Of a stretch of DNA of 11,084 bases, positions 2,436-11,084 are shown piece after piece. Every line of letters begins with the position of its first letter. The stretch's first letter is position 1. The translations under genes and the position numbers were made by a program. The DNA lies in NCBI GenBank assembly GCA_031366795.1, contig JANLOX010000040.1:1-11084 (forward strand). Reading direction: 5' to 3'. The DNA is from Candidatus Eiseniibacteriota bacterium. GTDB lineage: Bacteria > Eisenbacteria > RBG-16-71-46. The notes under the pieces were generated by a model that was not told the origin of the DNA, made no database searches, and saw only the letters and a list, made by a program, of their open reading frames with translations.

Positions 2436-4115
2436 TCACTCCACCCGGATCACCCTCCAAGCACGCGCAATGCCCTGCCCGCTCGCGCGCACGAAGAAGA
2501 TCCCCTCCCCCGCGGGGTGTCCGTCGCTCGAGCGGCCATCCCATGTGAGCGCGTTCGCTCCGGCGGCCAGCACTGCGGGCTCGTAGGCACGAATGGCCCG
2601 ACCGCGGACATCGAAGACCTCCAAGCGCACTGTCGTGGCGGCCGGCAACACGAACGTGAGCCGCACGCGATCGACGAATGGATTGGGCCATGCGCGGGTC
2701 ATCTGCAGGGCCTCGGGCGCTTCCGGCACCGCCAAGGTGCGGCCGATCGCATTCACGTGCTGAAGATAGATGTCGTTGTTAGTTCCGCTGCGCCGGTCCT
2801 GCCAGGACACGAACGCGCCGAGTGCGCCATCGGTCGCGATCGTCGGCAATTGCTGGTTGTCCACCGCGGCGCATAGTGCCAGCCCATCGGGCGTCCACGT
2901 CGATGCTCCCGTCAAATCCAAGTGCTGGGCATAAATGTCGTCGCCCGTGGCGAACATGCGCCCGTCGTACCAGGTGATGACGGAGCCCGTCGCGCCGTCC
3001 GAGGCGATCGTCGGCGCGAGTTGGTCGGCCTGAGCCGTACACACCGGGACGCCGCTCGGCATCCACATAGGCGCTCCCGAAGCATTCACCTTCTGGGCGT
3101 AGATGTTGTAGTTCGTATTCGTGCGGAAGTCCTGCCACGCGACTGTTGCGCCGCCGGCTCCATCGGCGATCATGGCGCACTGGTTACCCGCAGTGCACAG
3201 CATGACGCCAGCGTTGGTCGGCGGCCACAGCTTATCGCCATTGAAATTGACGCGCTGAGCGTAGATGCCCGTGCTGCCGGCGGCCCACGCGACGACGGCG
3301 CCACCCGAACCATCCATGACGATCGCGGGGCGCCGGTTGTTCGAGAGACTGCTCAGGGGTGAGTTGGACCACAGGCTCGCCCCGGCAGAATTCAATCTCT
3401 GAACGCGGCACCCGCCCGTTCCGTTGAACCAAGCGATGATCGCGCCTCCCACTCCGTCCGAGACGACTACCGGAAGCGTCTCGCCGTTCATGCTGGTCAT
3501 CGTCACTGGAACTCCGATGGAACCCCAGAGCATCGCCCCCGCGGCATTCACCTTCTGGGCATAGATGTCGGAGACACCACCCGCGCCATTGTCCTGACGC
3601 CACACGACGATGGCGCCGCCCGCTCCATTGATGTCTCGAGCGATCGCCAGATCGCGCATCGTCGGCGAGGCGACCGAGACTGGAACGCCATTGGCGCCCC
3701 ATTGAGGATTTCCCGCCGCGTTCACCCATTGCGCGCGAGGCTGGGCGCTGGTGCCTCCGAAGGCGAGATAGGCGCCCCCTGTGGCGTCGGAAGCGATGGC
3801 GGGGACCGTCGGGTCACCCGAGTCCCCGGTCACGGAAAGCGGTACACCGCCTGGCGCCCATTGCGGGAGTCCCGCCGCGTTCACGCGTTGCGCGAAACAG
3901 ACACCGCCAGCGGGAACGGTGGGGCGAAGGTCGTGCCACGCCACGATTGCACCGCCCGCTCCGTCCGGCACCATGGCAGGGCTCAATTGATCGCCCGCCG
4001 CCGTGCACACCCCGTTGCCATTGGCGTCGTCCGCAACCGCGGGACCGATGCTGATCGATGATGCAGTAAGAGCAAGGATGAGCGTCAGCACGATTACTTG
4101 GGGTTTGCAGTTCAC
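2436..4115 (-). CDS. Secreted repeat (probable 8-bladed beta-propeller) protein with C-terminal FlgD-Ig/T9SS-like sorting domain
   Basis: GTG 4115 with GAGG RBS; signal peptide; 8 repeats of P.I..DG.GGA.V.W...IYAQ.VN..G...W...GV; C-terminal WPNPF...LEVFDVRGR...LTWDGR...G.FFVR. Confidence 0.85.
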   Translation of the reverse strand: MNCKPQVIVLTLILALTASSISIGPAVADDANGNGVCTAAGDQLSPAMVPDGAGGAIVAWHDLRPTVPAGGVCFAQRVNAAGLPQWAPGGVPLSVTGDSGDPTVPAIASDATGGAYLAFGGTSAQPRAQWVNAAGNPQWGANGVPVSVASPTMRDLAIARDINGAGGAIVVWRQDNGAGGVSDIYAQKVNAAGAMLWGSIGVPVTMTSMNGETLPVVVSDGVGGAIIAWFNGTGGCRVQRLNSAGASLWSNSPLSSLSNNRRPAIVMDGSGGAVVAWAAGSTGIYAQRVNFNGDKLWPPTNAGVMLCTAGNQCAMIADGAGGATVAWQDFRTNTNYNIYAQKVNASGAPMWMPSGVPVCTAQADQLAPTIASDGATGSVITWYDGRMFATGDDIYAQHLDLTGASTWTPDGLALCAAVDNQQLPTIATDGALGAFVSWQDRRSGTNNDIYLQHVNAIGRTLAVPEAPEALQMTRAWPNPFVDRVRLTFVLPAATTVRLEVFDVRGRAIRAYEPAVLAAGANALTWDGRSSDGHPAGEGIFFVRASGQGIARAWRVIRVE

Positions 4116-4358
4116 GACTACCTCAGGATAGGCAAGGGGCGTTTCCCAGGGGGGCACGGCAGCTCGGGGGGACACCACGATGCTACTGACCCGGTGGAGG
4201 GGTACTCAAGGACGAAGATCGTGTTCCTTACGCTGCGGATCTCGGCGAGCGCGCTGAGGTGATGAAGGACGATGATTCTGAGATGCGCACCGATTTCATG
4301 GCGTGATAGGGTCGGCACCTTCGTGGTTCGGTCCCCCCCAGCAGAGGAGAAGAGACTC

Positions 4359-4815: not shown

Positions 4816-5645
4816 CCTAGATTATGCGTGAAGCGTGAGATACACGAAGACCTCCATGTCGTAGAAAGGTCTTGTTCAGGGACATTTCTGCTGACAACGG
4901 AGGTCTTCGCGTGTGCGATTCTACCACAACAGCCTGCGTGCTGTTCCCCGAGTTGTTCGAGCGGCCGCTGACGGCCACGTTCGAGGTCCCAACGCCAGTT
5001 CGGATGGTGGCGCGGTGCTGCTCAAGGCGGCGGATCGGCGGCTCGGCTTGATCTCGAGACTGGCCGCAGCACTCGTCGATGAACGGCAGCACGCCAAAGT
5101 GCGGCACGCCGTCCAGGACTTGCTCACGCAGCGCATCTACGGTCTGGCGCTCGGCCTGGGTGAGGGACTGTTCGAGACGGTGCTGACGCGGCACGCGCAC
5201 CGCCGTCGCAAGGTACGCCGCATCACGATCGACATGGACCTCACCGACGATCCCACGCACGGTGCGCAGCAACAGGCGTTCTTCAATAAGTTCTACGACG
5301 CTCACTGCTACCTGCCGCTGCTGGCGTTCCTGACGTTCGATCGCGAACCATAGCAGTACCTGTGCGCGGCCGTCCTACGGCCGGGCAACGCGGCCACCCA
5401 AACCGGTTCGCTGACGCTGTTGAAGCGCATCGTTGGCCGCCTGCAGAAACGCTTCCCGAAAGCACGCATCCTTGTGCGCCTCGATGGCGGCTTCGCGGCG
5501 CCGGAGCTGTTCGAGTTCCTCGACATCGTCGGCGTCGACTACGTCGTCGCGATGGCCAAGAACAAGGTGCTGGAGCGTGAGTCCGAGCTCGACATGATCG
5601 TCGCGCGGGTACCGAGCGAGACCACGGGCGAGACCGAGCACGTCC
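4816..5645 (+). mobile_element. Decayed, 3'-truncated IS1380-family element
   Basis: Left end CCTAGATTATGCGTGAAG resembles the ISEcp1-type IRL (CCTAGATTCTACGTCAG, recalled). It is followed by a transposase pseudogene; no right IR is seen. Confidence 0.8.
4911..5645 (+). pseudogene. IS1380-family DDE transposase pseudogene
   Basis: GTG 4911 with GGAGG RBS; motifs SSDGGAVLL, QRIYGLALG, IDMD.TDDPTHGAQQ..FFN.FY...CYLPL, LRPGN, VRLDGGFA. Frameshift at about 4988, apparent internal deletion after GLALG, in-frame TAG at 5351-5353, truncation at about 5645. Confidence 0.9.
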
Positions 5646-5744
5646 TTATCTCGAGTCTCTCTCGTGATCCAACAGCGCGGAGCCGTGTCCGAATCGTCGG
5701 ACCGCCAGGATCGCCTCAGTTCTCAAAACTCGAAAACCGATCCT

Positions 5745-5852
5745 TGGGAGGATCGTTCGTTCCATCCCAATCATGGCGCCGACGAATCCATTGATCAGCA
5801 GCAGTAGCGAGAATTGACCGAGATTCTCATGCAGGCCGAGCCTTACGGTCAC
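5745..5852 (-). pseudogene. N-terminal remnant of an MFS transporter
   Basis: VRLGLHENLGQFSLLLLINGFVGAMIGMERTILP matches the TM1 region of an MFS subfamily often found in rhodanese/ArsR clusters. Similarity stops after about 35 codons. Confidence 0.7.
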
Positions 5853-6011
5853 GGGGCTTGCAGGGCCTCCAGGGGTGAGCACGGACTCAGGAAACGGCGC
5901 ATCGGTTGGCCGGGAGCCGCACCGCGTCGCGAACTGCGCCCAGCGCCACCGCATCGGCAGGAATGTCTTCGGAGCCTCGTATCATATTGAAGGCGGCACG
6001 GTCGAAGGCAT

Positions 6012-6821
6012 TCAGGAACCAGCTCGTGGCACTCGTGAACCCGGCTTCCTCGCGCGGAAGTTGATCCCGAGCGTGCCGAATTGAGCCGCACTGGAGTGCT
6101 GCGGCGCGCCGCTGAAGACGTCCGCACGCCAGGTGATCTCGAACCCTTCGAAACCCGCGGCGAGGACCACGCTCTCGAGCTCTGCTTCCAGCAGAGCGCC
6201 GGCGATTCAGCCCTTCCAGAGATCGATGTCGCGCTTGGCGGACTCGGGCACCGCTTTCTGGACGAGGATGTCGCCGATCTGGAGCCGGCCACCGGGGCCG
6301 AGGACGCGGAACATCTCGCGGAAGACGTGGACCTTGTCGGGACAAAGGTTGACCACCCCGTTCGAGATCACAACATCGGCCCACCCATCGGCTACGGGCA
6401 GCCGTTCGGCGTGCCCCTGGTGGAACTCGACATTGCGCATGCCAGACTCGAGGGCTGAAGCCCTGGCCTTCTCGAGCATCTCCGGGGTCATGTCCACGCC
6501 CACGACACTGCCCTGCTCCCCGACCAATCGTGTCGCGATCAGGCTATCGATCCCGGCGCCGCAGCCCACGTCGACGACTCTCTCGCCCGGCATGATCGAT
6601 CCCGCAGCGAATGGATTGCCTGTCCCGGCGAAGGACTCGATCGATCGCTCGGGCACGCCCTCGAGCGAAGTGCTGGCGTAGCCCAGCAAGCGGGCAAGCG
6701 GGCGACCCGTATGAAAGTGGAAGCCTCGATGAGGATCTTTGGCAACTTCGGCGTATTCCTTGCGGATCTCGCACCGAAGCTGTTCGACGTCGACATCAGG
6801 GACGGAAACAGGATGTGTCAT
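6012..6821 (-). CDS. ArsM-like class I SAM-dependent methyltransferase, probable selenoprotein (Sec at TGA 6207-6209; 269 aa)
   Basis: Motif I VVDVGCGAGID, GVDMTPEML, DVVISNGVVNL. After DLWKG-TGA the frame stays open for 64 codons (IAGALLEAELESVVLAAGFEGFEITWRADVFSGAPQHSSAAQFGTLGINFRARKP...), continuing the ArsM pattern LWxGCIAGAL....L..AGF...I. Confidence 0.85.
6179..6206 (-). promoter_or_regulatory. Candidate bacterial SECIS element
   Basis: mRNA: UGA-aucgccggc-GCUCUGCU-gga-AGCAGAGC. Perfect 8-bp stem; the G-initiated apical loop starts 18 nt after UGA. Confidence 0.7.
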
Positions 6822-7501
6822 GCTCCCTCCTTAAGTTTCGCGACGGGCAGACCAGCCGCCCGCCAATCCGGAAAGCCAATTTCCAACCGGCGCGCGCGAT
6901 AGCCACGCCGGCGGAGCTGGGCCACTGCCTCATCGGCGTAGACACAGAACGGTCCGCGACAGTAGGCAACGACCTCGTGTCGCTTGGGGATCTCCTTCAG
7001 TCGCTTTTCGAGTTCTCCAACTGGAACAGAGCGGGCGCCAGCGATGTGGCCAGCCTCAAATTCGGCTGCTGGCCTGACGTCGAGAACGATGACGTCCTTC
7101 TCGCGGATGCGCTTGAGCAACTCTTTGCCATCCACACTCTTGAACTGGGCCCGGTCCGCGATGAATGCCGCTACGAGGCGATCAATCTCGGCAAATTGCG
7201 CCTGACCGAGATCGCGAATCGCCTGCCAGACCCCAAACACCCGGTCGCCGGAGAGCCGGTAGTAGGAACAGGCACCGTCGCGGCGGACCGCCACAAGTAG
7301 CGCCGCGCGCAAGATTTGAAGGTGCTGCGACGTGTTCGCCACCGACATTCCCGTGAGGCCAGCGAGATCGTCGACGGTGCGCTCCGCTTGAGCGAGCAGG
7401 TCCACCAGTTCCAACCGATGCGGGCTGCCAAGCGCCTTCCCGACCCGGGCGAGCTCGCGGAACAAGTCATTCTTGAATTGCCGATGAACGTTAGTTTTCA
7501 T
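6818..7501 (-). CDS. ArsR/SmtB-family regulator fused to a rhodanese domain
   Basis: KALGSPHRLELVDLLAQ..RTVDDLA...SVANTSQHLQIL (ArsR HTH); VLDVRP..EF..GHIAGA and YCRGPFC (rhodanese active-site loop). Its stop overlaps the methyltransferase start (ATGA, 6818-6821). Confidence 0.93.
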   Translation of the reverse strand: MKTNVHRQFKNDLFRELARVGKALGSPHRLELVDLLAQAERTVDDLAGLTGMSVANTSQHLQILRAALLVAVRRDGACSYYRLSGDRVFGVWQAIRDLGQAQFAEIDRLVAAFIADRAQFKSVDGKELLKRIREKDVIVLDVRPAAEFEAGHIAGARSVPVGELEKRLKEIPKRHEVVAYCRGPFCVYADEAVAQLRRRGYRARRLEIGFPDWRAAGLPVAKLKEGA

Positions 7502-7502
7502 G

Positions 7503-7537
7503 AATTCAATTGACTCATTGAATTATACTCGAGTCAA
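7503..7537 (-). promoter_or_regulatory. Operator/promoter of the ArsR-rhodanese operon
   Basis: Perfect palindrome AATTCAAT-N6-ATTGAATT (7503-7524) abutting the ATG; second inverted repeat TTGACTC-N14-GAGTCAA (7510-7537); minus-strand TATAAT (7522-7527) and TTGACT (7532-7537). Confidence 0.75.
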
Positions 7538-7902
7538 GGGCAACTTATCCGGACGAGTTGCTGCATGTTCGGTGCGCGCCAGCAGGCGCAGTGGCAGCCG
7601 GGCTGTCTGGATCACCAGCACCCCCCGTCGGTGATGCACTACGCCGAACCGCCAGAAAGACACGGTTCTCCGCCGCCGGCCAGAGACGAGGGCTCTCCCT
7701 CGGGCGGAGCCGGTGGCCTCTGCCCGGCGCTCGAAAATGCTGGCCCCGGCAATGCACCATTCGCAGTACTCTACGTTCGGCGCGAAGGGTTGGGAGGTCC
7801 GTCACGAATGACTCGATTGGCCAGATCCGGAACTGCCTCACACCCGGCCACACCGAAACATCACCTGCTCGTTGGTCGGGCGACGAATCAAAGGAGAAAC
7901 GA

Positions 7903-10489: not shown

Positions 10490-11084
10490 GGGGCTTCGGG
10501 GTTTGGTGTGGCTGAAAACCTACGGGTCATGATTTCGTGCTGACGGCCGCCGGATAGAGATTGAGCCCGCCACAATGGAAGAAGATCGCCGTGCGGAACC
10601 GTTCGCGATTGCGGAACCCACAAGCCCGCCGCTTCGCCGACTGGATCTTCGCGTTGAGCGACTCCGCACCTGCATTGGTGACGCGATGCGTGAAGTAGGT
10701 CCGGATGTTCGCCCAGTGACGCTTGATCATGGCCGCGACCTTGCGCATAGGCTCGATCTGGCTGCGACGCGCCCAGCGATACCAGATGGCGAAGTTGCGA
10801 TCGGCCACTTGGGGGTTATGCAGCGCCCACAGCGCCATGGCAGCTTCGCGCAGTGCCCACGCGCGACCCATGCGGGGCGCGAGATCCCGCAGCAGGTTGA
10901 ATGCGCGGCTCTCGGACCAACTGCGGCCACGCGGACTCTCCAGCCAGCGGTACTTCGTGCCCTTGAGGATCGGGTCCCCTGCCGCCATGTTCGACCGGTG
11001 CTCTTGCCTCCGCACGAGATCGACGGCGTTGCCGAGGTGTTGGGCGATGTGAAACTTGTCGAACACGATCTTGTCCGCCGCGCC
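10490..11084 (-). mobile_element. ISL3-family element, right part (continues beyond the window)
   Basis: Transposase 3' end followed by an ISL3-like right end, forward GGGGCTTCGGGGTTTGGTGTGG from 10490; AT-rich flank TAGTTCAT. Confidence 0.85.
10527..11084 (-). CDS. ISL3-family transposase, C-terminal part (5' end outside the window)
   Basis: IVFDKFHI...AVD.VRR.E, TNAGAESLNAKIQ..KRRACGFRN..RFRTAIFFHCGGL motifs. Confidence 0.92.
   Translation of the reverse strand, partial: GAADKIVFDKFHIAQHLGNAVDLVRRQEHRSNMAAGDPILKGTKYRWLESPRGRSWSESRAFNLLRDLAPRMGRAWALREAAMALWALHNPQVADRNFAIWYRWARRSQIEPMRKVAAMIKRHWANIRTYFTHRVTNAGAESLNAKIQSAKRRACGFRNRERFRTAIFFHCGGLNLYPAAVSTKS

Follow-up and report, generated by a model that had tools for sequence, protein, structure and literature searches.

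Recoding of UGA to selenocysteine (Sec) is in itself textbook knowledge. A Sec-containing 'arsenite methyltransferase' appears among the entries of three catalogues (PMC13188914; PMC9312934; PMC2398784), in one of which it is tied to NF008823/PRK11873, a UxxG context and the example WP_011987699.1, with a table that cites Fomenko 2007 (PMC13188914). The name already covers forms without the Cys174 equivalent of the arsenic methyltransferase ArsM, as it is missing from three of the six entries that a deep-Sep supplement file lists under this name (PMC12013277). For ArsM itself, the account given is that methylation of As(III) needs all four conserved cysteines, with Cys174 and Cys224 binding the metalloid, and DMAs(III) is bound by Cys224 alone in the published scheme (PMC6138428).

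The window, the stretch of 11,084 nucleotides analysed here, encodes a protein that has in common with the catalogued Sec enzymes the fold, a putative Sec at the Cys224 column and the UxxG context. WP_011987699.1, however, keeps the equivalents of both Cys72 and Cys174, whereas the window protein has neither and reaches 229.5 bits with the NF008823 model, the cut-off of which is 263. Haft and Tolstoy are said to have described in 2025 three NCBIfam selenoprotein families, NF047649 (MTase/UXPK-star), NF041537 (ArsM/AhpD) and NF041536 (ArsM/DUF2284), which have Sec at the same column. The window protein stays below the cut-offs of these models (209.5 of 460, 229.7 of 510 and 214.5 of 575 bits, respectively) and is devoid of the second Sec domain that is part of all three, its final TGA being a variable stop. 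Two NF047649 members found over the cut-off possess, like the window protein, Gly at the Cys174 column, but these two retain a Cys located two positions ahead of the Cys72 column, are without the His motif listed below and, at 35-41% identity, belong to a separate branch.

The caution in the earlier note that the family itself may not be new was thus well placed, as Sec-containing ArsM-like methyltransferases, forms without Cys174 included, are already catalogued. No paper singling out the present branch or a sulfur role came up in the literature searches made, and Haft and Tolstoy 2025 may already describe the branch.

Conservation of the in-frame TGA

The methyltransferase gene is located on the minus strand (6821-6012, with the ATG at 6821), a strand that the earlier note does not give, and is preceded by a Shine-Dalgarno sequence at 6832-6826. 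Translation of the plus strand of 6012..6821 gives no such protein, and a plus-strand reading was dropped as there is no gene there. The features that matter for the reading of the gene are the following.

6012..6821, minus strand: gene of a SAM-dependent methyltransferase with an ArsM-like fold, 269 aa if the TGA is read as Sec
6207..6209, minus strand: in-frame TGA, codon 205, aligned with Cys224 of CmArsM, inferred Sec
6179..6197, minus strand: hairpin resembling a bacterial SECIS, with a stem of 8 bp and a GGA loop 17 nt past the UGA
6012..6014, minus strand: genuine stop codon (TGA), which relatives do not consistently keep as TGA, and not a second Sec
6818..7501, minus strand: ArsR-rhodanese fusion regulator, intact, its stop overlapping the methyltransferase ATG

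Translation of the minus strand bears out that the called open reading frame ends in DLWKG-TGA and that the frame is open for 64 codons further: the TGA at 6209-6207 directly follows DLWKG and is succeeded by 64 sense codons and a stop TGA at 6014-6012, which amounts to a stop at residue 204 in the standard code and to 269 residues with the TGA as Sec. A contig of sequencing run X6 crosses the TGA with no difference there; as X6 comes from the same study as a possible source, this argues only against an assembly error. Among the sequencing runs listed as carrying this DNA, none is of RNA. The final TGA was considered as a second Sec of the UXPK-star type and rejected, since the stop codon of relatives is TAA, TAG or TGA and no conservation extends past it. 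A promoter and terminator scan of 5600-7900 gave 0 sites, and Rfam at the gathering threshold gave 0 matches over the whole window.

In a scan of species-representative genomes, one search pattern of which favoured Cys, the best 80 of 516 confirmed stretches were used as loci; column 205 is TGA in 77 of them, TGC in 2 and TAG in 1, and in the TGA loci 55-90 open codons follow. When 151 genomes of the host phylum and 201 of the class Anaerolineae were searched in addition, and the repeats L090 and L127-L129 (of L011, L016, L015 and L034) dropped, 12 non-duplicate members were obtained, 10 with TGA and 2 with TGT (TGA in 4/4 further host-phylum and 6/8 further Anaerolineae members). In total, TGA is found in 87 out of 92 related genomes of several phyla, Cys in 4 and TAG in 1, a count of related sequences and not of independent events; the Cys codons (TGC/TGT) stand at the DNA level in L073, L078, L132 and L133. 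Five loci (L065, L080, L081, L083, L087; genomes G058, G073, G076, G074, G080) derive from unpublished genomes and are included in the 80-locus counts, in the tallies of hairpins and of selA/selB, and in the tree; with these five removed, TGA amounts to 72/75.

The protein collections give another picture, with Cys at column 205 in 79 of the top 120 protein hits, and another residue in 6, Trp being read in 4 of these, a set biased to Cys forms because these are full length. The remaining 35 hits end before the column, as had been foreseen for a protein that gene callers truncate. Uncorrected pN/pS of the window against 44 close relatives (the partial L047 and L052 being left out here and in the tree) is 0.36 before the hairpin and 0.27 after it, the latter value indicating that the part past the TGA is coding. 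The homologs therefore provide what the earlier note had named as support, a conserved TGA or Cys at the column and purifying selection on both sides, and the TGA is not private to this genome with TGC/TGT in close relatives.

L074 (4001-4753) has TAG at the Sec column, retains 6/8 hairpin pairs, has neither selA nor selB found, and is probably a decayed Sec gene. In L013 a second methyltransferase copy (3-641), which also ends at the Sec column, lies 3.3 kb upstream of the first.

The hairpin and the selenocysteine machinery

The stem-loop described in the earlier note was recovered on the minus strand, with arms at 6197-6190 and 6186-6179 joined by 8 Watson-Crick pairs, a GGA loop at 6189-6187 and a start 9 nt past the UGA. 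According to the bSECIS model as set out in one catalogue, a loop of 3-9 nt with a G within its first two positions, a stem of 4-16 bp, a spacing of 16-37 nt and an MFE of at most -7.5 kcal/mol are expected (PMC13188914); checked by hand, the hairpin has a 3-nt loop, 8 bp, GGA, 17 nt and -13.3 kcal/mol, all within these ranges. Its folding energy is no better than that of shuffled GC-rich sequence (z = -0.62 to +0.24 in 4/4 segments), so that the case for the hairpin rests on comparison.

With the peptide fixed and codons drawn as the host uses them, the chance of a perfect 8-pair Watson-Crick stem is 4e-4 (0.013 with G-U), and of the genome's 14,102 open-flanked TGAs this one alone has such a stem, the geometry having been chosen after the fact. 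Over codons 206-215, pS is 0.27 versus about 0.65 elsewhere (44 pairs), and Ala209 is encoded by GCT in 46/46 sequences, a codon that makes up 6% of host Ala codons; at 19 further Ala columns the commonest codon has a mean share of 0.51 and a maximum of 0.63. At least 7 of the 8 stem pairs are formed in 71/78 TGA sequences, so a conserved hairpin is present, and two-sided changes occur at the pairs +11:+27 (8), +12:+26 (20) and +15:+23 (4), also in places where the peptide differs. Both Cys members form just 3/8 pairs. With synonymous sites frozen and pairs covarying, the hairpin is selected as RNA. In 4/4 DNA runs, contigs of other organisms pile up at 6160-6263 of the window, which fits the expectation if the UGA and hairpin are the most conserved DNA of the gene.

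A search of the host genome (96% complete) for the Sec machinery, proposed along with the selenoprotein reading, retrieved selA, selB, selD and tRNA-Sec (selC), all over cut-off, and a host without this machinery is thereby not at hand; selD adjoins selC, and selB runs off a contig end. Among the 77 TGA genomes from the best 80 of 516 loci, 68 possess selA, and in the other nine selB is over cut-off in three, below it in three and without a match in three, these last having neither selA nor any selB match in incomplete assemblies. As selA is near-universal in the host phylum (144/151 genomes), its presence is necessary but not telling and the test has little power; selA is also found in 3/4 Cys-form genomes, and Cys versus Sec form shows no clean pattern against host selA.

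A second tRNA-SeC called by ARAGORN (G000:C211:12692-12770, TCA anticodon) is poorly paired, is absent from the RF01852 matches and is likely false. The host shares its class with the Eisenbacteria record L011. In a Dehalococcoidia record (L010:1933-3804, minus strand) a gene that by eye resembles selB is situated divergently, just upstream of the Sec methyltransferase.

From TGA and hairpin conservation, selection and host machinery, the TGA at codon 205 is very likely read as selenocysteine, which agrees with the earlier reading of a 269-aa Sec enzyme. It is accordingly very improbable that the codon reflects a simple nonsense mutation or a sequencing error, or that TGA is reassigned throughout the genome. 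The decayed neighbours, the unexceptional hairpin energy and the TAG at column 205 of L074 are what a nonsense mutation would have in its favour; short of direct proteomics it is refuted by the conservation of the TGA across phyla, and selection acts downstream and on the hairpin in a host with a true tRNA-Sec beside selD. Against reassignment, both the methyltransferase gene and its upstream neighbour end in TGA at points where their homologs end as well.

An ArsM fold without the arsenic-binding cysteine pair

The best sequence and structure matches of the protein are canonical ArsM/AS3MT enzymes (CmArsM 4FR0, TM 0.72; CrArsM 5EVJ, 1.4e-32; human 8XT7), and no enzymes other than arsenic methyltransferases are among the nearest solved structures. 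The structure predicted with Cys in position 205 (pLDDT 91.8) is that of a class I SAM methyltransferase with the ArsM fold. The inferred Sec205 aligns with ArsM Cys224, but of the four conserved ArsM Cys positions just this one holds S or Se in the window protein. Three further sites distinguish the sequence.

6357..6359, minus strand: Gly155 at the ArsM Cys174 position, arsenic ligand lost
6621..6623, minus strand: Thr67 at the ArsM Cys72 position, Cys lost
6702..6722, minus strand: branch-specific N-terminal motif with two His, residues 34-40, conserved

These replacements are not peculiar to the window. The Cys174 column is Gly in 80/81 aligned members and in all of the top 120 protein hits, Cys is not among the top residues of the Cys72 column throughout the branch, and the N-terminal part has no conserved Cys, the Cys44 column itself lying outside the alignment shown. 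The other cysteines (87, 160, 212) each occur in under 40% of the 81 members, eight of which have zero Cys apart from the Sec site; judged from the aligned sequences, Sec is the sole conserved S/Se residue of the branch. As to the motif LWxGCIAGAL with a catalytic Cys, ascribed to ArsM in the earlier note, the Cys is indeed common to the solved ArsM proteins and the Trp is not, W-x-G-[U/C]-IAGAL being the wording of this branch.

No NCBIfam model is over its cut-off among the 25 matches listed. In a quick midpoint-rooted tree of 139 rows, made without bootstrap, 18 canonical ArsM form one clade (SH-aLRT 97) and the Sec methyltransferase branch forms another (106 rows; support 93), within which the Sec forms are interspersed with Cys forms. 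The canonical arsM genes of the host phylum, in contrast, have TGC, both Cys motifs in 18/18, an adjacent CxC ArsR and a clade of their own. A separate ArsM over cut-off is present in 4/5 host-phylum carriers of the Sec methyltransferase; the host genome has none, so that the methyltransferase could fill the ArsM role there.

Further ArsM-like genes of the host phylum (L096, L098, L100, L102, L110, L114), approximately 40% identical, share the TGA of the Sec column and the Gly of the Cys174 column and belong to two other branches. In 24/81 aligned members (e.g. L013, L033) the domain is followed by a C-terminal helix ending in Cys, which is absent from the window protein and resembles the linker preceding the TusA domain in Cys-form fusions.

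Gene neighbourhood and proposed function

The context was surveyed over the best 80 of 516 loci, with up to 4 kb on each side, many flanks being shorter, and with our own ORF calls. Neighbours encode ArsR-rhodanese at 23 loci, MFS at 18, MBL (metallo-beta-lactamase) at 17, DsrE at 15, OsmC at 11, TusA at 4, an LMW-phosphatase (ArsC-like) at 2 and a glyoxalase-fold protein at 1; other methyltransferases stand near some. The rhodanese, TusA, DsrE and MBL families handle sulfane sulfur. Any of ArsR-rhodanese, MBL, DsrE and TusA is found at 36 of the 80 loci (32/75 without the unpublished genomes), and the 44 loci without these four are so partly because contigs are short. By Pfam, 18 of the top 120 protein hits, all Cys forms, are fusions of the enzyme with TusA. 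The MBL neighbours may be persulfide dioxygenase-like, an assignment below any cut-off, as they score far below that of Blh and their best match, glyoxalase II, is below cut-off as well.

Genes of the ars context typical of canonical ArsM/AS3MT are, on the other hand, scarce. A CxC ArsR occurs at 1 of the best 80 loci versus 17/18 canonical arsM loci, the latter with a smaller flank and all from one phylum, and Acr3, ArsB, ArsH and thioredoxin-fold ArsC were not found (E<=1e-12) in 149 of the 163 unclassified near neighbours, the scan leaving out 12 methyltransferase-cluster ORFs, one EF-Tu-like and one SelB-like protein. With the partner Cys gone, the NF008823 cut-off missed and a sulfur context in place of ars, the arsenite chemistry implied by the earlier note finds no support, and as far as the sequences go the arsenite-methyltransferase label is doubtful for the Sec methyltransferase.

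The selenoprotein might still methylate a metalloid (for example antimony, tellurium or an arsenical with one or two methyl groups), with one high-affinity Se ligand replacing the Cys pair. ArsM as the closest solved fold, DMAs(III) held by Cys224 alone, catalogues that call even Cys174-less Sec forms 'arsenite methyltransferase', and a host without other ArsM over cut-off are consistent with this. The missing Acr3, ArsB, ArsH and thioredoxin-fold ArsC, the single CxC ArsR and the canonical ArsM that co-occurs in four of the five relatives speak against it and render it unlikely.

The preferred proposal, with chances about even, is that the single Sec would anchor a sulfur or selenium substrate, not arsenite, for methylation; it is derived solely from the neighbours and the missing residues, and the few LMW-phosphatase and glyoxalase-fold neighbours count against it. 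At its outset the hairpin would very probably be bound by SelB and Sec-tRNA delivered to the UGA. With one chalcogen ligand, the protein would quite probably neither hold As(III) nor run the disulfide cascade of ArsM. A rhodanese, a TusA or DsrE carrier or a small persulfide may then, which is an evenly poised guess, supply the Sec with sulfane sulfur or selenium to give a Sec-S(-) or Sec-Se(-) adduct next to SAM. The outer atom of this adduct would attack the SAM methyl like the metalloid in ArsM; a cellular thiol would free methanethiol or methylselenol, with a second methylation possible. A lone Sec beside SAM suits such a two-coordinate substrate. The ArsR-rhodanese fusion would sense the same sulfur or selenium species and the operon would serve detoxification.

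Methylation of sulfide and persulfide has precedents in unrelated enzymes, MddM1/2 (PMC12904073) and TPMT (PMC13089183), and MddH is a further S-methyltransferase (PMC11445057); in the available text of the former two sources a Sec anchor is not described (PMC12904073; PMC13089183). All of these enzymes are SAM-dependent, and the job proposed for the window enzyme would be analogous. The likeness is one of function only, MddM being of UbiG/UbiE type with 204-210 aa.

The Sec or the His pair might instead activate an organic thiol or another small molecule, or Sec might relay the methyl group, with the carrier neighbours engaged in repair or regulation and not in supplying the substrate. The invariant His35/His37 motif, the OsmC-family neighbours and other methyltransferases nearby, and the C-terminal Cys of 24/81 members, which could recycle Sec, fit such a role; the TusA fusions and DsrE/rhodanese/MBL neighbours indicate sulfane sulfur specifically, and this alternative is no more probable than methylation of a metalloid.

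The sulfur/selenium proposal can be extended, tentatively and at somewhat worse than even chances, to a widespread group of systematically truncated selenoenzymes that would methylate persulfide sulfur or selenide on one Sec, fed by rhodanese, TusA or DsrE. If so, Chloroflexota, Gemmatimonadota, Actinomycetota and Eisenbacteria would possess an unrecognised way of making methanethiol, dimethylsulfide or methylated selenium, built on a repurposed ArsM scaffold, and a Sec-dependent enzyme would be added to volatile sulfur or selenium production. Many protein-collection entries of the branch are named arsenite methyltransferase; with entries cut at residue 204 and so named, arsenic-methylation surveys may count a branch without the arsenic-binding Cys. 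The natural Cys forms and TusA fusions, expressible without Sec machinery, would allow an easy test of the sulfur/selenium reading.

As the earlier note had observed, the genes next to the methyltransferase are decayed.

5887..5910, minus strand: rhodanese/metallo-beta-lactamase (persulfide-dioxygenase-like) remnant, last 7 codons and stop, body missing
5691..5870, minus strand: 5' fragment of an MFS transporter, a family companion
4913..5590, plus strand: IS1380-family transposase fragments where the remaining MFS gene would lie

In the closest relatives, L138 and L139, the order is methyltransferase, rhodanese-MBL, MFS, the rhodanese/MBL gene being whole in L139 and present in L138. The pairwise match of the remnant to L025 is weak (E 0.045), and the call is made because the last 7 residues are identical and the position is the same in L138. 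With two downstream genes broken the operon may be decaying, and the Sec gene could be real in the family with the window copy silent, a reading compatible with the preferred one and slightly less probable than either alternative substrate. The patchy spread (6/151 host-phylum genomes, no copy found in the one same-genus genome) agrees with it, along with the MBL gene reduced to its last codons and the MFS gene cut off beside IS1380 fragments. The regulator, ribosome-binding site, frame and perfect hairpin are, however, all intact, and many family members stand without MBL or MFS neighbours.

The contig is rich in mobile-element debris, with ISL3 transposase fragments at 10527-11084 (minus strand) of the window. 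A 62-bp direct repeat (720-781 with 1185-1246, 94%), found on contig C208 too, possibly represents insertion-sequence ends, and a short tandem repeat at 490-640 has look-alikes on contig C85. At 2436-4178 (minus strand) the window encodes a repeat-rich, likely secreted protein of 580 aa with a C-terminal FlgD Ig-like domain.
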